A stretch of 64,000 nucleotides of DNA from Octopus vulgaris (Eukaryota). The position numbers were made by a program, and so were the translations under genes. The notes under the pieces were generated by a model. It was given only the letters and a program-made list of their open reading frames with translations, was not told the origin of the DNA and did no database searches. The stretch is taken from assembly GCA_951406725.2 (NCBI GenBank), contig OX597816.1, positions 35,898,001 to 35,962,000 on the forward strand. Reading direction: 5' to 3'. This document shows positions 3,693 through 24,436 of the stretch, piece by piece; positions within the stretch are counted from its first letter, which is position 1; every line of letters begins with the position of its first letter.

Positions 3693-4570
3693 TTGGAGAG
3701 ACAATGCCTATCGTTCTCTCTGAGCAATCACCTAATACCTCCAAGAAACATCTACATGACGCGACTTACGGAAAAGACGGAAATTGTCTGCAAATGCATG
3801 CGCTGGAAGGCTTCCTTCTACGAGAATCCGTCCACCACCATATATATGGATATCTACGCTCCTAGCAAAAACGTCTTACAAAAACGTTTTGGCTAGGAGC
3901 GAGATTACTGAGAGGCAAACGTATATAGACAATCTTCAAACACCCTCTACTCACATCAAAAGGTTTAGGAACAGGGAAATTATATGATATAACCCCTCCT
4001 GCAATCTAGAAGTTCCCACCTATTTAGCTAGGGGATTCTTGTCGTTAATTAAGAAAGGCTTCCCCAGAGGCCACATGTATTTCGATTCTTCAACCCCCAT
4101 TATGTCATGGTGAGCTACTCCTGCTTAGACAGTATGCAGACAGTAACATCAGAATAAATACACGCACACCAACCCCAACACCAACTTTCAACTTCCTAAT
4201 CCCCACCATGTGCCCTCTAGAAATATCCTGCCTCTCAAGGGCTGTAGTATACAAAACCACCCTTAGACCATCCGGTAGCGTTACCAGGCACTATACGAGT
4301 GTGACAGCTAATGACTTCCAGGAAAGATACTCCCAGCATATGCACTCGTTCAGATCCAGGGACAGAGATAACTGTACTTTCCTGTCTCACTTTCTCCGCA
4401 GACTCCGTGACCTCCACGAAAACTGCATATCCTTCAAACCGGCTGTATCCCCCAAAAAGAAATACGATTTATGGTTTTGCTGTCACCAGAGGTATGCCCT
4501 GGACCTTTAAACGCAGACCGCAAAGACAGAAGAAATGCTGCCTAGCTTTTCGTCCAACGCAGCAATAATT
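3693..4570 (+). pseudogene. Nematis-like PLE fragment: N-terminus fused to linker and GIY-YIG endonuclease, RT core deleted
   Basis: LTEKTEIVCKCMRWKASFY; REII*YNPS...FLSLIKKGFP...VSYSC; ORF 4208-4510 CPLEISCLSRAVVYKT...HYTSVTANDFQERYSQHMHSF (degenerate GIY-YIG). Confidence 0.75.
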
Positions 4571-5678: not shown

Positions 5679-5715
<37 letters not shown>

Positions 5716-5817
5716 TCGGGGTGAGTACTTGATAATTATAAGCACCTGTGTATACCGTTTGGTGGTGTAGGTGGTGGAGTAAATTGATCAAAATAAAAAC
5801 ATGATGCCAAGGATTCA

Positions 5818-5895
5818 GCGGTACATATGTTTCGGGCCTTTATTAGACAGATTTATAACAATGCATAATGTATGTCTGTGGCCTTCTTCAGCCGC
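5818..5895 (-). ncRNA. Type I hammerhead ribozyme, left arm (mirror copy)
   Basis: Reverse complement of 6094-6171. Confidence 0.75.
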
Positions 5896-6093
5896 GCACA
5901 ACAGCTTCCACAAGGACATGTGTTACATCAAAAATTCTTGGTTGGGGATGCAAATCCTCTCATTCGAGAGAAGAAAGAGATGGACGCTTCAATTCTATGC
6001 TGTTGCCGCATTATGTCGTACGCGAATGAGAGGATTTGCATCCCCAACCAAGAATTGTTGATGTAACACATGTCCTTGTGGAAGCTGTTGTGC

Positions 6094-6171
6094 GCGGCTG
6101 AAGAAGGCCACAGGCATACATTATGCATTGTTATAAATCTGTCTAATAAAGGCCCGAAACATATGTACCGC
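6094..6171 (+). ncRNA. Type I hammerhead ribozyme with long loop II, right arm
   Basis: gcgg-CTGAAGA-aggcc...ggccc-GAAAC-atat-GTA-ccgc; stem I gcgg/ccgc; palindromic stem-loop III ACATATGT typical of PLE minimal HHRs; the base of stem II is imperfect. Confidence 0.75.
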
Positions 6172-6202
6172 TGAATCCTTGGCATCATGTTTTTATTTTG
6201 AT

Positions 6203-6269
<67 letters not shown>

Positions 6270-6619
6270 AAACAGATTCATAGACAGACACACAGACAGA
6301 GAGAATACATATAGATATCTAAATGATTTTATGCATTTGTATGTATATACGTGTATGCATATGGGAGAATGAATTTTGAAGCAGAGGATTCCCACCTTTC
6401 AACACGTATCTCTCTGAGTTTGGGAAAGATATATGGAACATAGTTAGGAACATTAAATTCCCGCACGACCCCGCCCGCTTAAACGGAATCCACACGTAAG
6501 GATATTACACAAAATATGCAAAGAATTGGCTATGACGAAAGAAATATTTATATCCTTCGGTCGTTCAATTTTCAACTGACCAGCAGACCAATTGTGTAAA
6601 CTTATCACCATGTGTAAAC

Positions 6620-8335
6620 CTATCATCCAGGAAGGCAGCTGATTGTCTTCTTCCTTTTCCAATGTGAACTGTGTGGATGTCTTTATTGAGTTCACATGAT
6701 CTAACAACACTTGTACATCTTTCTGGTGGGGCCAAAGTATAAAGATGTCATCAACATATCGCAGCCATAGGGTTGGTTTAGTAGTGTTGATCCTAAAGTC
6801 AAATTCTCAAAGTATTCCATGTATATGTTGGCGAATATCGGTCATAATAGCGAACACATACCTAACACTCTTTTTGTCGATATATATCACTGTCCATACT
6901 GAAGTAGATAGTTTCTACCCAGATGGTCAACGTTTCCATCAAGTTCCTTATTGGTACACTAGTGCGTTCTTTTAGATGGGTTTCTGTCACTACTTTCTCA
7001 TAAATCACCGATAGTGCTTCACCAATTGGGACGTTGGTGAACATACTTATCACACCTAGACTTACAATCTAGTTGGATTCAATTCTGTGACGTGAGTAGA
7101 ATTCTTCACGAACGATGTTGACTTTTCTGTTAATGGACTGATTATATCTACAAGGAAGCGGCTCAGTGGATGACATGGTGAACCTCTACGGCTCACTATA
7201 GGTCTTAATGGAATACCATCCTAGTGAATCTTAGAGAGAACCTACATGTGTGGTAGTTTAGTGTAGAGTTGAGTCGGTTGTCTGTACTTCATTGGTGTAA
7301 AGTATACTTGTTCTTAGTCAAGATCTGTGACAACTTTCTCTTTGTTTTCAGAGTTGGGTCTTCCTTTACTTTACTGTAGCTACCATCACTTGTAAGTCTT
7401 GCCAATTTTTCCGAGTAGTCAGCCTTGTTTATCACCACTGTAGCATTTCACTTGTCTGCTGGAAGTATTATGATGGAATTGTCACTATGTAGTCTTTTGA
7501 TAGGGAACTTTTCTTCCTTAGTGGTTTAGGAAGTTTCGCTTTTCCTAGTACCTGTCTCACTTTCCACTTTAGTTCATCTCCCTGAGGTTTTGGTATCTTT
7601 ACGGTTATCTCTTCAATAGGGGCTATTATATCCAAATATAGAATGGGCTTGATGGTTGTCGCAATGTTGAGACCTTTGTTTAGTAGTGCTTTTTCAGATC
7701 TTTCTAGATGTCGGCTACTTTAATTAATGCTTTCACGGGTGGGTGACGGATTTCAGTCTTCATTCTCTGACGTTTGAGTTTCATAAACTTCATAACCTGG
7801 CTAGTCTTCACCATTTCAAATTCTTTCAGGTACAACTTTTCTTTATCTTGTTGGATTCTCTTTCCTTCATCATCACTGTTTATTTTCCTAAGTAATGAAG
7901 ACAACCTCTCTTTGATTTGTTTTTTTTAGTTGATGTTTTTTCCAACGGTTGTAATGGATCTTCTCACGGACGAGGGTGTATCCTGCCCTTTCCGCCACTC
8001 TTCTAGCTTTATATGAATCCGCTGATATCATTATATTCAAGCCAGGTGACTTTAGCTTTGAGTCTACTTTTACACATAAAAGTTAGATGGTTTGAAAGAC
8101 GAGCTAGTTTTTGATGGAGTTTATCTCTATATCTCCATTGAAGTCTAATTAGAAAAAAGACTTCTATTTTTAAGAGATGAAAAATTACGTACTTTATTTA
8201 CATTTGATGGATATTTGTCCTCATCATGTTTGTTGTTAACACAACGTTTCGGCTGATATACCCTCCATCAGGTGTCTTGGGGAAATTACGAAACTGGGTT
8301 CTCATTCCTAATGTATTTGTCAATGTTGTTATAAT
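6620..8335 (-). mobile_element. Penelope/Poseidon-like PLE, degenerate RT with 5' pseudo-LTR remnant
   Basis: Minus-strand motifs KLARLSNHLTF, ISMFTNVP, YRQKE, LWLRYVDDI, QFTLEKEEDNQLP; many stops and frameshifts; HHR remnant just upstream (8238-8276). Confidence 0.85.
8238..8276 (-). ncRNA. Broken hammerhead in the 5' pLTR (A9 and 5' strand of stem II missing)
   Basis: Reverse complement gacac-CTGATG-[gap]-gagggtatatcagcc-GAAAC-GTT-gtgtt; stem I gacac/gtgtt; palindromic AACGTT. Confidence 0.6.
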
Positions 8336-8339
8336 TATT

Positions 8340-8912
8340 GAGCGAGGGAGTAGTGCATGCCATCAAAGTGACATTGGGGTAAAATATACGAAGCCCAGTA
8401 TACCCATCATGACTACCTGTCTTATAAGGGTAAACTAGGCACAAGCATCACAACCATATGTGCGCGACATGGTGATCTCATATCAAAATAAACAGCATAT
8501 GACATGCAGGTCGGGCCAAGTTAGAATTTTCTTCTGGTCGAGTAACCCATCCCGTTCAAAAGGTCCCTGAATAAGGGTTGTTTAAGGTTGTTGAACGAAA
8601 CACCCATGTTTCCAGAGGTGAATAATTCAAACCCCAAAGAATCCCTCTCAACACATGGCTATGATGCTCTCCCACTACTTATGCTCGTGATTAGAGATGC
8701 ATATATCGTTAGCCACTAAGGGACATGCTCAACTGGTTACGGTCAAACAACTGACAAGCAAATCTGTGGTATTGAGCAGAAAATTTTCTGTAGCCCATCT
8801 TTTATACCAAGACAAAACAATGTACATGATAACACTTCCAATCAGTTAAGATCACAAGACACGTGCATCAGGGCAACGGTATTGCATCAGGGCATGGTAC
8901 TGCATCAGGGCA
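8340..8912 (-). mobile_element. (TAA)n-associated non-coding retroelement (family uncertain, possibly R4/Dong-related)
   Basis: Same sequence recurs at 21083-21310 + 23975-24070 and 24136-24250, next to (TTA)n-type sequence; the end motif gcatcagggca is triplicated at 8865-8912. Confidence 0.6.
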
Positions 8913-10065
8913 TATTATTATTATTGTTGTTGTTGTTGTTGTTGTTGTTATTATCATTCAGGTCGCTGCCTGGAATCGAACTCGGAATCTTGAGCATATA
9001 GTGTAGTGGTTAATAGCGCGGCTTACTAACCAGTGACTTGAATAATAATTGCCCCCAATATCAACCTAATGTCACATCTCTATAGATAATCATTGTGGTT
9101 TGGGGAAAAATCTCATTTTAATTATTTACCACTATATATTTATCTATTCATACGCCTTAATAACTTATCCCATTACATCATTTTTCACTCTATCTCATTA
9201 GCTGCTTCTATGTGTAATATATATTGAACTGAAGATTGTTCCTCTTCCCACGACTGTAGATTTAAAATTCTCGTAAAGTTACGTAGTTTTCTATCTATGT
9301 TTTCAATTCGTTATCTACAGAAAAATGCTACTGGCAATATTAAATTTATTACCCCAAAAGATATATATTTAACTTCTGAATACTTTGTTAATTTTTATGT
9401 ACATATAGATACTTCATATCTGTCTGTAAATGCGACTTATGTAAACCATTGTAAAATTTAACACTTCGCTTTTATGCATAATCTATAATACAAATTTATA
9501 CTAGTTCATACTTCTTTCTGTTAGGCAACTCTATTTCCTTTCTCTTGTATGTTTCATTTCCTTATGTATACGAATAGAAGAGAATATGATCAAAAACTGC
9601 GTGTACTCCATCCCATGCAGCTGTGGTAAGCCATACAATGTAACTAAATGTATTAGAATTATATTCTAATACATTTAGCTACTTCTCATCCAATGCTAAT
9701 TTATATTATATCCATTCTCCTCTCTTTGGAACCTGTCTAGTTACTCAAGTAAAAATCCAACCAATATAATATTATAAATAGTATATTGTCCGATGTATAT
9801 GGTTCAAACCCGAAAAAAAGCTTACAAACATAAATGCGCTAATGAACAGTATCTATTACATTCCGGTTACTAAAATTTTCGTGTTGGCTTTTCAACGTCT
9901 TCATATATTCGATCTCATTCATATAAATCTGTTTGAATTTGTAATATATATTGAACTGAAGACTTTTCCTCTCCCCACCACTATAGATTTAAAACACATG
10001 TTTCATAATTTTGTATTATGGCAAAATTATTAGTACCCAGAGCGAAGAGTTTTCATATGCACAGG

Positions 10066-15049: not shown

Positions 15050-15053
<4 letters not shown>

Positions 15054-17895
15054 TGTATGGGTGTGTCCGTGTATGTGTGTATGTATGTGTGTGTATGTAG
15101 CTGTGTGGGCGTGTGTATATGTGTGTGTATGTAGGTGTGTAGGCGTGTGTATATAGGTGTATGTATGTATGTCTGGGTGTGTCCGTGCATGTTTGTGTGT
15201 GTGTGTGTATGCATGTGTATGTAGGTGTGTGTGTACGTGTGTAATGTATGTGTGTATGCGTGTGTATGCGTGCGTGTGTGTATGTAGGTGCGTGTGTATG
15301 TGTGTGGGAGTGTAGGTGTGTGTGTGCGTGTGCGTGTTTATGTTGGTGTGTGCGTATGTGAGTGTGAGTGTATGAGTGTTTGTCATGCATGTGTGTGCGC
15401 GTGCAGGTGAGTGTGTGTGTAAGTATGTGTGTGTGTATGTTTGTGTGAGTGTGTATGTGTGTATGTCTGTGTGTATGTATGTGCGTATAGGAGTATGTAG
15501 GTATGTGTGTGTGTATGTATATGGGTGTATGTATGTATGTGTGTGTGTGTGCACTCCTCTCTGATGCCCTCACCCGCGCCCGTCGCATCGACCGCACTAC
15601 CGCCTTGTCTCCTTCCCCCCGCCCACCCCCCAACCGCACCCCCTTCCCCCTCCTTTCCACCCCTCTACCCTACCCCTTCGTCGCAAGATACTACGTGCCT
15701 TCCGTCGCCTCCAGCTTGATCCCACCACCCGCCCCATTTTCCCTAACCAACCCCTGTCCTCTTTCAAACGAGCCCGCAATCTGCGTGACCTCCTGGTCCA
15801 CAGCACCCTCTCCCCTTCCCCCTCAGCCCCACACGGATCATTCCCTTGCTCTAGATCCCGCTGCAACACTTGCCCCTTCATCACCAACACCACCGCTGTC
15901 ACCGGCTCCAACCTGCATACTGTACGCATTAGGCACTCTTTTACGTGCACCTCGTCTGGCCTTATTTACTGCATTAAATGCAACCTATGCGGGATGCTGT
16001 ATGTAGGTCAGACGGGACGCCGGTTGTCCGACCGTTTCACTGAACACTTGAGGGACGTTCGCCTACACTCTTTTTCTCCCGTCGCACGCCACTTCCGCTC
16101 GGCCGGCCATTCCCGAGATGACATCTCAGTGTTTGGTCTCGCCCCCCACAATGGTCGCCCACTTTCCAGGCTCCACTTGGAGCAACGCTACATCTTCACC
16201 CTACAAACTGCCACCCCACACGGACTTAACACAGCCCCCTCCTCTTGAGACCGTTTTTTTTTTTTTTTTTTTTTCCGGACACACCACCCACACACACCCA
16301 CCCACCTACCTCCCACCCACCTACCTACCTCCCACACGCCTGTTCACACACACACATACGTAGACCCATCTACGTACATACATTCACACATTTAATCACA
16401 CACACTTACAGACACACATGCACATACACACACACATACATACATACACACACGCATACATACTTACACACACACACACACACACACAGACATACATACA
16501 CACATACACACACACATACATACGCACATACATACACACACACTCACACACACACACCGCACGTACATACTTGACACACACACACCGCACGTACATACTT
16601 CACACACACACATGCACACATACATGTAGGCACATACATACATACATACCCACACATGCACACCCGTACACTGAATGCACACACACATACACCTTTTTGC
16701 ATCCAGGCAGCCCCCCTCTTTTCTGCTTTCCGGTTTTGGCTGATGGATCCTCGGTTCCCGCGTAGCGGGGCGTTCGAGGGCCTTTGCGCTCGCGCGCCTT
16801 GGCGCGCGCTGGCGGCTCGGTCGGCCCCTTTGGGCTTGCGTTGCACTGCTTGTGCGTTGTGTGCGCGAGCGCGCTTCGTGTGTGTGGGCTTGCTTCGGAT
16901 GTGCGCTTGCGTATGTTTGCATACATACCCACACACTCGCATGCATCCCTACCCACATACATACACGCACACCTACTCACACACACACATACACACACAC
17001 ATACCCACACACACACACACACATACATACATACACACACATACCCACTTCAGACATACACACACACAGACATACACCCATACACCCACACTCACACGCA
17101 TACACACACACACATACACACGCACACGTACACATACACACACACACACACCCACATACATACATTACACTTGTATACACACACACTTACATTCATACAC
17201 ACACACACCTACACAGCCATACCCTCACTCAGACACACACATCTACCTACACACACACAAACACACACTGACACACACCCATACATAGATACATCTACAC
17301 ACTCACGCCTACACACATACATACACACATACATAAACACACACACATACACATACACACACATACGCACACACGCATATACTTATACACATGCACACAC
17401 ACACACATACATACATACACCCATATACATACACACACACATACCTACATACTCCTATACGCACATACATACACACAGACATACACACATACACACTCAC
17501 ACAAACATACACACACACATACTTACACACACACTCACCTGCACGCGCACACACATGCATGACAAACACTCATACACTCACACTCACATACGCACACACC
17601 AACATAAACACGCACACGCACACACACACCTACACTCCCACACACATACACACGCACCTACATACACACACGCACGCATACACACGCATACACACATACA
17701 TTACACACGTACACACACACCTACATACACATGCATACACACACACACACAAACATGCACGGACACACCCAGACATACATACATACACCTATATACACAC
17801 GCCTACACACCTACATACACACACATATACACACGCCCACACAGCTACATACACACACATACATACACACATACACGGACACACCCATACATACT
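15050..17895. repeat. 504-bp inverted duplication (15050-15553 vs 17392-17895) of cryptic (CA)-rich PLE 3' UTR
   Basis: Identical irregular pseudo-translations on opposite strands (ORF 14928-15554 minus vs 17391+ plus); the left copy abuts (TA)n on one side and the PLE 5' truncation point on the other. Confidence 0.9.
15655..16248 (+). CDS. PLE zinc-linker plus GIY-YIG endonuclease (open frame upstream of the track's Met at 15994; frameshift near 15650)
   Basis: FKRARNLRDLLVHS...CSRSRCNTCPF...FTCTSSGLIYCIKCNLCGMLYVGQTGRRLSDRFTEH...PVARHF...EQRYIFTLQTATPHGLN. Confidence 0.88.
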   Translation, partial: FHPSTLPLRRKILRAFRRLQLDPTTRPIFPNQPLSSFKRARNLRDLLVHSTLSPSPSAPHGSFPCSRSRCNTCPFITNTTAVTGSNLHTVRIRHSFTCTSSGLIYCIKCNLCGMLYVGQTGRRLSDRFTEHLRDVRLHSFSPVARHFRSAGHSRDDISVFGLAPHNGRPLSRLHLEQRYIFTLQTATPHGLNTAPSS

Positions 17896-19951: not shown

Positions 19952-21311
19952 CCTAGGTAGATGGCACTGCGAGCTGATCTATATGTATACACGCCATTTG
20001 TCAACAAGCAAATATATTCTCCCTGACAAAACGAAGTGAGTAGCTTGTTCCCCAGTTCGAACATGCATCGGACTGATAATAACATTGCAATTTTACCATA
20101 CTACATTTACCATTCAACAACTCAATATGTAATCTGGCCCCTATCAAGCTTAGAGTATGATTTCAATCTCTCATTGGTTTTGCAATTTAAATTATAATGT
20201 TTCATTTCTGAAGAGCTTGCAGCCTTTCTCATTAAGATGAAATGATTACTTATTCAACGTGTTTATATCACACCATTTGTACATTAGTCGATTGCTAATT
20301 GACTTCCTACAACGTGTTTCCAAACTCATATCCCATATGTTAATCCTTTAATGCATATCTGCCTCTTATACTTTCGGCATTTAGATGATTGTCATCTATG
20401 AATAGCAAGTATTTCTAGATCCTCTTAATACTTTCGCTACATCTCTTTATGGAATTAAGATACAATTAAGGGACAAATACCTGCCTGACCCCTTTTTCTA
20501 TATAGAAGTTTTGATCATTCCGAGATTTAAGAATGAATTTCAACTTATAAACTACTTACTATAAATCTCGCTCTTTATCGCATACACTATGATCAGCTGA
20601 AATAAATTATCAATTACTTAGTTATGATTTAAGCTCATTATAATGCATGTATTACGGTAACTTATTTTAAGTGATTGCTTTTTTAACTGGGTTATCATTT
20701 ATAACTTATAACTTTGAAATAAATGCTACCTAGGTAGTTTTGTATGTGTTTTTATATTACTGCAAGATCACATTCTTTATCGAATATACAACGTAATATT
20801 CACATGAAACATAAATATTGCAATCCAATATACATTCCCATACAATATAAATATTGTAATATTCTCCTATGCTATTTCAGCAGATAACGTTTGACCTTCA
20901 GTATTTTCTCTGAGATATATTACCTGCTGGTTATTATAGCCATCAGCACAGAAAACAATATTTAATTACATCTTGCTTTAGATAGGTGTTATGTTTTATT
21001 TGTTTCAGCCATTAGACTGCAGATATGCTGACATACGGCGTTGAAGAATTTTAATTCAACATATCGACACCAGTACATATTATTGAGTGAGAAAGCAGTG
21101 CATGCCATCAAAGTGAAACTGGGGTAAAATATACGAAGCCCAGTATACCCATTCTTTTCAACACAGGGATATGATGCTCCCCCACTACTTATGCTCATGA
21201 TCAGACATGCACATATCGTCAGCCACTAAGGGGCATGTTCAACTGGCTAAGGTCAAACAACAGACATACAAATCTATGGTATTGAGCAGAATATTTGCTG
21301 TAGCCATTCTT

Positions 21312-23980
21312 TGAAGAGTGCCTTAGCAAAGTCAAGTCCTTCCTTCGGAAGTACCCCTCCGGAAACATACTGGTGATGGGTGATTTTAACTTCCCTCATG
21401 TGAACTGGCCCACAAATACTCTGAAGTTAGGCAAGTGCTCTACATCAGATAGAGCAGCAGCAGAACTGCTCTTTAATCTGATGGATGAGTATTTCCTGAC
21501 TCAGCTAGTGCTTGAACCAACGAGACAGAATAAAACGATCTTGGATCTGGTACTGACCAATCACTCTAGCTACGTTCACAGCATTTCAGTCGAAAAACTC
21601 TCCTCTCAGACCACGACATGGTACTCTGCAATCTTAATTCCCGACGTATAAAAACCAAACCAGCCAATCCCACTCCATAGCACCCATTTGACAACATAAA
21701 TTTCCACAAAGGATCTGTCTTCCATCGACTGGTCTTTTACTCTCAATTCCCCTCATATTGAGACCGCGTGGCAGCACTTTGAAACCATTGTCACCGACAC
21801 ATGCTCTAAACACGCTCCCAAGAAATCTACTAACACAAACAGAAACCGGCTCCCTAAAAAGAAAAAAAACACTCATCAGGCGCATCAAAAGACTCAACAA
21901 AAAAATCAACCAATTAAAATATTCCCACACGCAACATCCACATTCAACAACAATGAAAAGACTAGAGCTGGAAAAACTTCATCTGCAGACTAACATGAAA
22001 ACCTCCATTGAAAATCAAAGAGCTGTGGAGGAACAATGGGTAATCAAAAACATCAAACAGAACCCAAAAGTGTTCTATTCTTATGCAAATAAGCATAGAA
22101 CCACTGTCTCACCTATTGGGCCATTGATTGATGAAAACGGCATTCCCCAACAGAAATACTGCAGAAACAATATTGCTCTGTCTTCAGTGTTCCCACTGAT
22201 ATTGATGTGAGGGAAACGAACGAAAGCTGACTCCCAACACAAAATCGCAGACATAACCTTCACTGCCACCGACATCGTAGCAGCAATAAATGAGGTCAAA
22301 CATTACTCTGCTGTAGGCCCTGATAGATTTCCCGCCAGTCTCCTGAAGGAATGTAGATATCAACTTGCAGTCCCTCTGACCAACCTCTGGAGAAACTCGT
22401 TAGACGCAGGTTATATACCGAAAAAGTTTCTATCCCAGTCGGTCATCCCGGTTTTCAAACAGGGAAACAGATCCCTCGCAGTCAACTATCGCCCAATCTC
22501 ACTCACCTCCCACATCATTAAAGTGTTTGAAAGAGTGTTAAGATCAAGGATAGCTGACGTCCTGGAGACCGACAAACTCCTAAATTCAAATCAGCATGGC
22601 TTTCGCTGTGGCAGGGACTGTCTAACACAGCTCTTACACCACATTGAAGATGTACTCAAAGCCTTGGGAACAGGTTCGAACTCTGACGTCATATACCTTG
22701 ACTTCAGTAAAGCGTTCGACAGGGTAGACCATAACATCCTACTCTCAAAATTGGCAAATGTTGGAATCCGTGGAAAAGTTCTACACTGGATTCAGTATTT
22801 CCTAGCGAATAGAACACAACATGTTGTAGTTGATGGAGTCGACTCAAACCCAGCAAAAGTCACCAGCGGTGTTCCCCAGGGAACTGTTTTGGGTCCGCTA
22901 CTCTTCATAATTTATGTAAACGACCTTTCCAGTGTCGTACATCACTGCAAAGTGAAAATATTCGCTGATGACACTAAGCTCCAGCAAATCGTCAATGAAG
23001 AAGCAGACCGAACTCAACTCCAGTCTGACCTATATGCTGTGAGTCAATGGGCAGACAGAAACAAAATGCAACTGAATGAGGGAAAATTTGAGCTGATGCA
23101 TTTTGGAAGAAATTCCTCACTAAAACAACCATACTCTCTTCCTTCAGGGGAACCGCTCACAGCCTCTAACAATATCAGAGACCTGGGTGTAATTGTTGAT
23201 GACGATCTCAGTTGGAGTGCACACATCAACAAGAAGGTCGATACAGCTCGTAGGATGAGTTCCTGGATCTTAAGAACTTTCCGGTCCAGAGAACAAGGTG
23301 TCATCATACCACTTTTTTCATCCTTTGTACGGCCACACCTTGAATACTGCTGCCCACTGTGGTCTCCTCACACAAGACAAAACATCTCCAGAATTGAGTC
23401 ACCCCAGAGGGCTCTCACTAAACAAATTGAAGGCATGGCTGCTCTCGATTATTGGGATCGCCTTAAAGCCTTGAAACTTTACTCCCTCCAGCGTCGCCGT
23501 GAGCGGTACATCATTTGTACGATGTGGAAAATATACCGCCAACTTTGCCCAAACGACCTAAACATTAGCTTCAAGGTTCATCCAAGACTTGGACCACGGG
23601 CTATACGTCCCTTGCCAAATTCAAGATCACAACATACATGTACACTGCAACATAATTTCTTTTCCTCAACAGGCCCTGCCCTATTTAACATTGTCCCGAG
23701 GGAGATCAAAGAGGAAAAGGATCCCATCAACTTCAAACAGAGTCTGGATAGATTCCTTCAAAGAATACCAGATAAGCCACCCATAATTGGATACAACTCA
23801 CCCAACAAGAACTCACTACTTGAACAAAACTGGATACAACTCACCCAACAAGAACTCACTACTTGAACAAAACTTGACTTAAACAGGATTCGAATAATCC
23901 TATCAGGTGGTGCTATTAAGTTAGACATGGCCTGGACCAATCTCTGGTCGAAACATATCTAAGTTTTATCTAAGTTTTAT
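21312..23980 (+). mobile_element. 5'-truncated CR1-group LINE (APE endonuclease C-terminus + RT), nested in the TAA-associated element
   Basis: VMGDFNFPHVNW...TR..ILDLVLTN; RT ORF; 3' tandem tail atctaagtttt x2; host sequence resumes at 23975. Confidence 0.9.
22523..23866 (+). CDS. LINE reverse transcriptase domain (upstream part frameshifted)
   Basis: QHGFR, YLDFSKAFDRVDH, SGVPQGTVLGPLLF, IFADDTKL, HLEYCCPLWSP, LYSLQRRRER; ~43-bp tandem duplication at the C-terminus (~23790-23875). Confidence 0.92.
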   Translation: MFERVLRSRIADVLETDKLLNSNQHGFRCGRDCLTQLLHHIEDVLKALGTGSNSDVIYLDFSKAFDRVDHNILLSKLANVGIRGKVLHWIQYFLANRTQHVVVDGVDSNPAKVTSGVPQGTVLGPLLFIIYVNDLSSVVHHCKVKIFADDTKLQQIVNEEADRTQLQSDLYAVSQWADRNKMQLNEGKFELMHFGRNSSLKQPYSLPSGEPLTASNNIRDLGVIVDDDLSWSAHINKKVDTARRMSSWILRTFRSREQGVIIPLFSSFVRPHLEYCCPLWSPHTRQNISRIESPQRALTKQIEGMAALDYWDRLKALKLYSLQRRRERYIICTMWKIYRQLCPNDLNISFKVHPRLGPRAIRPLPNSRSQHTCTLQHNFFSSTGPALFNIVPREIKEEKDPINFKQSLDRFLQRIPDKPPIIGYNSPNKNSLLEQNWIQLTQQELTT

Positions 23981-24069
23981 GCCAATACAAAACAATGCAC
24001 ATGATAACACTTCCAATCAGTTGTGATCAGGAGCCAAGAGAGCGACTGCCTGGTACAACATTAGGGCAT

Positions 24070-24137
<68 letters not shown>

Positions 24138-24436
24138 GAGTGAGAGAGCAGTTCATGCCATCAAAGTGACACTGGGGTAAAATATACGAAGCCCAATATA
24201 CCCATCATGACTACCCGTCTGATAAGGGTACACCAGGCACATGCATCAACTCTCCTAACCCCTTCATCCATTTCTACGCTCCTCATCTCTTTAATTATCC
24301 TTATTATACGTCATTATTATTATTATTTTTACCATTATCATTATCATCATTATTATTATTGTTATTATCATTATTATTGTTATTATAATTATTATTGTTG
24401 TTGTTGTTGTTGTTATTATTATTATTATTATTATTA

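Follow-up and report, generated by a model that had tools for sequence, protein, structure and literature searches.

The palindrome at positions 5711-6206 of the window (the whole stretch of 64,000 nucleotides of Octopus vulgaris contig OX597816.1 analysed here) is very probably a single young insertion from an abundant PLE family, in which a TA microsatellite has received two 5'-truncated, hammerhead-bearing ends in head-to-head orientation, the join having been made on site and not copied as a unit. Most likely it represents a new family member with a known architecture, and the locus itself is an ordinary one. Its placement among the PLEs rests on structure, namely on five features that the sequence appears to display: a minimal hammerhead; an inverted, head-to-head, 5'-truncated copy; a one-sided tail with two 3' ends; a microsatellite target; and a dispersed multi-copy family with variable inversion and truncation points (9 joints in 4 runs).

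These features have precedents in the literature. An inverted 5'-truncated copy, a one-sided tail and (TA)n targets are standard for PLEs (PMC8557442), and in the Penelope elements of Adineta the inverted pLTR is 37 bp shorter than the direct one, the tail is one-sided and the head-to-head arrangement is the commonest (PMC3846280). Inverted pLTRs are a routine feature in curation (PMC8969392). A 2014 study that read most such motifs as truncated PLEs described dual minimal hammerheads on opposite strands, with a spacing of 100-700 bp (PMC4209133). An earlier note on this DNA proposed that the inverted hammerhead arrangement, if it amplifies as a unit, would constitute a distinct class; the arrangement is, however, an already published PLE feature (PMC8557442, PMC3846280, PMC4209133).

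A search of the 64-kb window recovered an inverted repeat of 187 nt (5780-5966 and 6023-6209) with 98% complementarity and 56 nt between the arms. Its core, 5783-5966 against 6023-6206, contains 2 mismatches in 184 positions, making the arms about 99% alike and bearing out the 184-bp arms and 56-nt spacer described earlier. The unit is asymmetric, a point that the earlier note does not make: the left arm is prolonged at its 3' end by 72 nt (5711-5782) that are not part of the repeat; this tail is 65% A+C and ends 111 nt beyond the predicted hammerhead cut. Nor does the note mention the (TA)n tract that adjoins the palindrome at both ends. The two hammerhead cores are 207 bp apart, and the unit has no other 14-mer copies in the 64-kb window, so that the inverted pair stands alone at the locus. 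The features, with hammerheads, cuts and target site as read from sequence, are as follows:

5683-5710, no strand: (TA)n microsatellite, left half of the likely target site.
5711-5782, minus strand: 72-nt 3' extension (tail), present in the inverted arm only; likely marks the distal RT start, a role suggested by PMC11167929.
5783-5966, minus strand: inverted copy of the repeat 3' end (pLTR-like), its 5' end 56 nt shorter than that of the direct copy.
5818-5895, minus strand: type I minimal hammerhead, left copy, with the cut predicted to fall between 5822 and 5821.
5961-5966, plus strand: inversion junction, with G5966 compatible with both sides.
5967-6022, plus strand: 56-nt spacer, which is native repeat sequence immediately 5' of the right arm and not foreign DNA.
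6023-6206, plus strand: direct copy of the repeat 3' end, ending 39 nt beyond the predicted cut, a short 3' end as in other copies.
6094-6171, plus strand: type I minimal hammerhead, right copy, predicted cut after 6167.
6207-6243, no strand: (TA)n microsatellite followed by (GA)n, right half of the likely target site.

Each arm carries the motif CUGAAGA ... GAAA-C-AUAU-GUA with a 4-bp stem I (6098-6167 on the plus strand, 5891-5822 on the minus strand), both copies pointing outward. In the plus-strand copy stem I pairs 6094-6097 with 6168-6171, and the CUGAAGA core at 6098-6104 is followed by an extra A at 6105 and by a G-C closing pair (6106/6155) that encloses a 51-nt helix II region. GAAA at 6156-6159 then leads into a 2-bp stem III with a palindromic loop (6159-6166 being self-complementary) and the GUA triplet, with the predicted cut after 6167. 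At the level of sequence this upholds the identity and geometry that had been claimed, i.e. one hammerhead per arm, in divergent orientation, with a predicted cut after 6167. A type I minimal hammerhead within a terminal repeat is, as judged against the features in PMC4209133, characteristic of PLEs. A descriptor for the motif found two matches in the 64-kb window, both in the unit, and none in 100 dinucleotide shuffles; it was composed post hoc from the motif and its two matches are copies of one sequence, thereby counting as one independent instance. Rfam returned no match in the window at the gathering score, leaving the hammerhead motif uncalled, and 4 weak matches at E up to 10, all of them to unrelated families, were dismissed as chance. 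The constrained hammerhead fold of the isolated motif has an energy of -13.7 kcal/mol, 1.4 higher than the minimum-energy fold at -15.1 kcal/mol.

Single minimal PLE hammerheads show no cleavage as monomers (PMC4209133), and the hammerhead of the anole PLE cleaved only with protein (PMC11167929); on this basis the hammerheads in the octopus unit are predicted to need a dimer or a protein for cutting. Failure of a single arm to cleave, which the earlier note had proposed as grounds for rejecting its reading, would consequently be non-discriminating, because monomeric minimal PLE hammerheads do not cleave in any case (PMC4209133). The whole unit folds as one hairpin of -365 kcal/mol, and in a read-through transcript this hairpin is predicted to mask the ribozymes. 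The suggested self-inhibition thus survives as a predicted masking effect and fails as a built-in function: it would be a by-product for which no functional explanation is needed.

Our picture of the family comes from contigs of four (X1, X2, X3 and X8) out of 24 public sequencing runs. At least half of the sampled words are contained in 19 of the 24 runs, which span five organism codes, and runs guessed as RNA also contain family words, contigs being unable to reveal circles or strand. In the four runs 4720 contigs aligned to 5711-6022, covering all bins and, in every one of the runs, the tail; single family contigs reach depths of up to 4833 and 4975, where neither single nor summed depth gives a copy number. 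Contigs arriving at 5966 from the arm continue, in all four runs, as the reverse complement of the spacer, and upstream of those arriving at 5966 from the spacer side stands a different, common sequence. Because the contigs thus continue natively to either side of 5966, it is the spacer with the right arm that represents the native strand of an abundant repeat, the left arm being an inverted copy. That the spacer is native is also seen in loose ends at 5966 and 6002 and in an opposite-strand joint at 5968/6020. The native sequence continues upstream of 5966, with a median loose end of 41 letters in X8, and the parent repeat is readable for only about 30 letters upstream of the spacer. By eye, the loose ends show CATT before the junction both in the arm and, with a one-base offset, in the native upstream sequence.

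The same contigs place a second 3' end in the family. Loose ends occur at 5787-5793, two being pure TA runs or ending in them, and an A>T variant at 5782 is present at about 5-6% in 3 of the 4 runs; on these grounds other copies end where the right arm ends, and the family has a short 3' end, about 30-40 nt beyond the cut, and a longer one, which in the octopus locus lies 111 nt beyond it. At the two arm-mismatch sites of the left arm no alternative letter reaches 5% in the contigs, and the two arm differences fit either later mutation or the use of two templates. Judging from the loose ends behind 5837, 5869 and 5901, one or more subfamilies of the hammerhead repeat have diverged, the changes lying upstream of stem I and within the helix II region. 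Separately, the last 15 letters of the tail (5711-5727, minus strand) resemble the native upstream sequence in about 12 of 17 columns, by eye in X8; if this resemblance is real, a tandem monomer of roughly 325 nt would be conceivable for the family.

Eleven joints were tabulated, of which nine are inverted arm-to-spacer joints (left points 5740-5962), one is a returning joint and one shows native continuity. Each of the nine inversion joints is a single contig in one run, at a depth of 13-49, and the arm lengths vary; eight of the nine have a short side of less than 30 letters aligned at 85% likeness and are accordingly less reliable. The junction 5966/5967 itself is crossed by none of the 32 pieces listed, the longest among those from 432 contigs aligned to 5925-6005, a gap that proves no absence, as the insertion could be polymorphic and fragments that form hairpins could be lost. 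Merging of two rows at 5816 leaves 8 distinct joints. One of these coincides precisely with the base that follows the predicted cut (p about 0.1), three fall within 5808-5822 (p about 0.01, for an interval picked afterwards), and for seven the entry into the direct copy lies at 5964-5971 (p about 0.002, on an assumed detectable range of 5958-6000), entries upstream of about 5958 not being detectable with the aligned stretch. We take this clustering as a weak hint and a lead only; that the joints record the RNA 5' start (near 5960-5971) and hammerhead cleavage in vivo is a rather doubtful proposition.

In the reading that we prefer, a PLE GIY-YIG endonuclease would have nicked both strands of the (TA)n tract, and each freed end would have primed RT at an internal site of the element RNA. 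The right arm would derive from RT at a proximal start, about 30-40 nt beyond the hammerhead cut, and the left arm with its tail from a distal start, 111 nt beyond it. Both copies would then have extended toward the RNA 5' end, halted early and been sealed head to head via short microhomology (G5966; CATT), with the hammerheads as passengers from the pLTR. Priming from both target strands is suggested by two considerations: the anole PLE, which has an AT-rich preference, cuts and extends both target strands and starts RT from two internal AC-rich sites that delimit its tail (PMC11167929); and fold-back of the right-arm copy, itself devoid of the tail, could not yield the 72-nt tail. Set against this assignment to a PLE insertion are the tail length of 72 nt versus the usual 30-40, a target-site duplication that is unreadable within (TA)n, and the lesser reliability of the eight joints mentioned above; a further count is that no RT or GIY-YIG ORF has been linked to the family, and another that the neighboring decayed PLE pieces have no 14-mer in common with the unit. 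Twin priming is a term from work on L1. In the literature we found no PLE paper on it, judging by title and the start of the abstract.

The search for a coding parent consisted of three protein searches, none of which linked an RT or GIY-YIG ORF to the family, the upstream sequence being readable for about 30 letters. The frame from 5966 gave 6 candidates, none at E<=10, with 0 matches in 1.84 billion representatives, and the frame from 5967, with stops as X, gave 3 candidates and no match; two of the three frames were thus covered. No ATG inside the hammerhead or the tail opens a reading frame. Pfam applied to 5 ORFs produced weak matches only, with RVT_1 at E 0.033 for the neighboring sequence. 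Translations of loose ends yielded by-eye readings of the endonuclease C-terminus that conflict, one Hydra-type and the other Neptune-type, and were set aside as a guide to clade. Pattern scans gave 0 matches in viral contigs and initially 0 in metagenomes, where 4 later loci matching over 20-24 nt only were dismissed as chance. Judging by titles, none of the papers listed in the literature on octopus, Penelope, Neptune and hammerhead deals with this family, and the PMC8557442 supplement gave no match to 4 nucleotide and 2 peptide strings. Hydra-1_Obim was set aside, its hammerhead being a different one.

Decayed PLE sequence does lie nearby. A decayed piece of a GIY-YIG endonuclease at 4200-4510 (plus strand) looks Hydra-clade-like by eye when set against Fig. 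S7 of PMC8557442, with no call by Pfam. At about 6600-8000 (minus strand) there is a decayed PLE-type RT, interrupted by many stops and frameshifts and missing its 3' part beyond the YVDD region, which matches two uncharacterized Octopus sinensis proteins at 70-81% identity over most pieces and at 79-82% over 66 aa. These remnants were considered and rejected as the parent, having no 14-mer in common with the unit and being heavily decayed in comparison with arms that are 99% alike. Elsewhere in the window the sequence at 8326-8960 has matches at 21079-21312 and 23975-24248, dispersed pieces 70-92% alike that probably constitute a SINE-like family. Furthermore, a 504-nt inverted repeat of degenerate (CA)n/(TG)n, 100% identical, occurs at 15050-15553 and 17392-17895, 1838 nt apart, and is either a recent inverted duplication or an assembly effect.

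The alternative that survives best concerns the parent alone and is compatible with a PLE-type insertion at the locus: the parent could be a non-coding, PLE-mobilised hammerhead repeat, either a pLTR-only derivative or a non-LTR retrozyme. Non-autonomous PLEs have been described (PMC8557442), and retrozymes are derived from pLTRs and are likely PLE-derived (bioRxiv 10.64898/2026.07.22.740005). The three protein searches without a match agree with such a parent, as do the entry of seven of the eight distinct joints at 5964-5971, as though many copies start there, and the contigs that start in TA repeats at or shortly before 5966-5969. Yet the native sequence runs on upstream of 5966, joints entering upstream of about 5958 would not be visible, no tandem copy is present at the locus, and the hammerhead is of the minimal PLE type and not of the canonical retrozyme type (PMC7229834). 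On balance we lean slightly against a non-coding parent while regarding it as a serious candidate.

A second alternative retains the PLE and replaces two-strand priming with self-priming, i.e. fold-back, at a native hairpin, of one cDNA or of an antisense template. Priming of the latter kind has been proposed for Adineta Penelope (PMC3846280), which tells against double priming, and by eye the native upstream sequence matches the left-arm end in 12 of 15 letters (5951-5965), so that an imperfect 15-bp stem enclosing the spacer could form in the native RNA. The inverted arm, however, has 72 nt that are absent from the direct arm and hence were not copied from it, and the left points of the other joints are scattered over 5740-5962 instead of marking one hairpin. 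This makes self-priming unlikely at the octopus locus, and two-strand priming at the target remains our preferred account of the inversion.

The earlier note had raised the idea of a distinct class, a double-hammerhead element that is palindromic and self-inhibited and would amplify as a unit. Its arms are indeed 99% alike, its cores intact and its fold a single hairpin. In all four runs, however, contigs at 5966 continue into native sequence, the family has nine different joints, and the layout is that of a known PLE by-product, making amplification as a unit very improbable. It is just as improbable that the palindrome is a non-coding mobile unit recopied whole by PLE machinery, with the hairpin silencing its ribozymes and the junction lost from contigs through poor snap-back sequencing. 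Were the palindrome amplified whole, it would represent a non-autonomous ribozyme element of a new kind, but the evidence points away from that. What that note had set against its own proposal, a one-off truncated insertion of an autonomous PLE, largely describes what we find, except that the ORF of an autonomous parent was not recovered.

An assembly or library fold-back artefact would account for a junction bridged by no contig among the matches listed and might be suspected from the presence of the second, perfectly identical inverted repeat in the window; but there are 2 differences between the arms, 72 nt of genuine family sequence are present in the left arm and missing from the right one, and comparable joints occur in independent short-read runs, leaving an artefact with very little probability. 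Least probable, and largely refuted by asymmetry, is a DNA transposon of the MITE or foldback kind, its ends formed by long terminal inverted repeats and its target duplication being TA; the notion of a MITE mimic is likewise not supported. Despite the long inverted repeats, short non-coding middle and TA flanks, the terminal repeats are not symmetric, with 72 nt of family sequence beyond the repeat at the left, the middle is the native continuation of one arm, and hammerheads with short and long 3' ends are features of retroelements.

A single PLE-type insertion with ends joined head to head on site hence remains the best account of the octopus locus, and minimal inserts of this kind may be useful as a class. 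The origin of inverted pLTRs and tails is named as unresolved in PMC8557442, and the work on the anole found no RNA reads with an end at the hammerhead cut of the PLE (PMC11167929). A tally of arm ends in an abundant young family could separate double priming from self-priming, and the same tally could reveal whether cleaved RNA ever serves as a template.

Among known systems, animal non-LTR retrozymes resemble the octopus unit in being short, apparently non-coding and PLE-related with a type I hammerhead (PMC7229834; bioRxiv 10.64898/2026.07.22.740005). Retrozymes are direct tandem repeats with mostly canonical hammerheads and are expressed as circles (PMC7229834), whereas the octopus locus holds an inverted pair only, with minimal-type hammerheads that have a 4-bp helix I and a 51-nt helix II region in place of the 6-bp helix I, 4-bp helix II and loop contact of the canonical form. 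Poseidon_Ac of the green anole likewise has two AC-rich 3' ends downstream of the hammerhead and an AT-rich target (PMC11167929); its ORF begins within the hammerhead, unlike in the octopus unit, which has no such frame. The dual hammerheads of Schistosoma mansoni and the minimal hammerheads of metazoan PLEs (PMC4209133) share with the octopus pair the opposite strands and a spacing within 100-700 bp, together with the 4-bp helix I, the extra base after position 9, the G10.1-C11.1 pair and the palindromic helix III loop. They differ in host and family, and the 51-nt helix II region of the octopus motif lacks a stable closing stem in the minimum-energy fold. Pen2a_Av (PMC3846280) differs from the octopus locus in that the latter is without an ORF between the repeats and has a tail of 72 nt, not 30-40. 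It shares with the octopus locus the pLTR-sized arms of about 200 bp, the microsatellite or AT-rich target and the hammerhead within the repeat, and in both the head-to-head inverted copy is shorter at its 5' end and only one arm bears a tail (PMC3846280; PMC8557442 Fig. 2).
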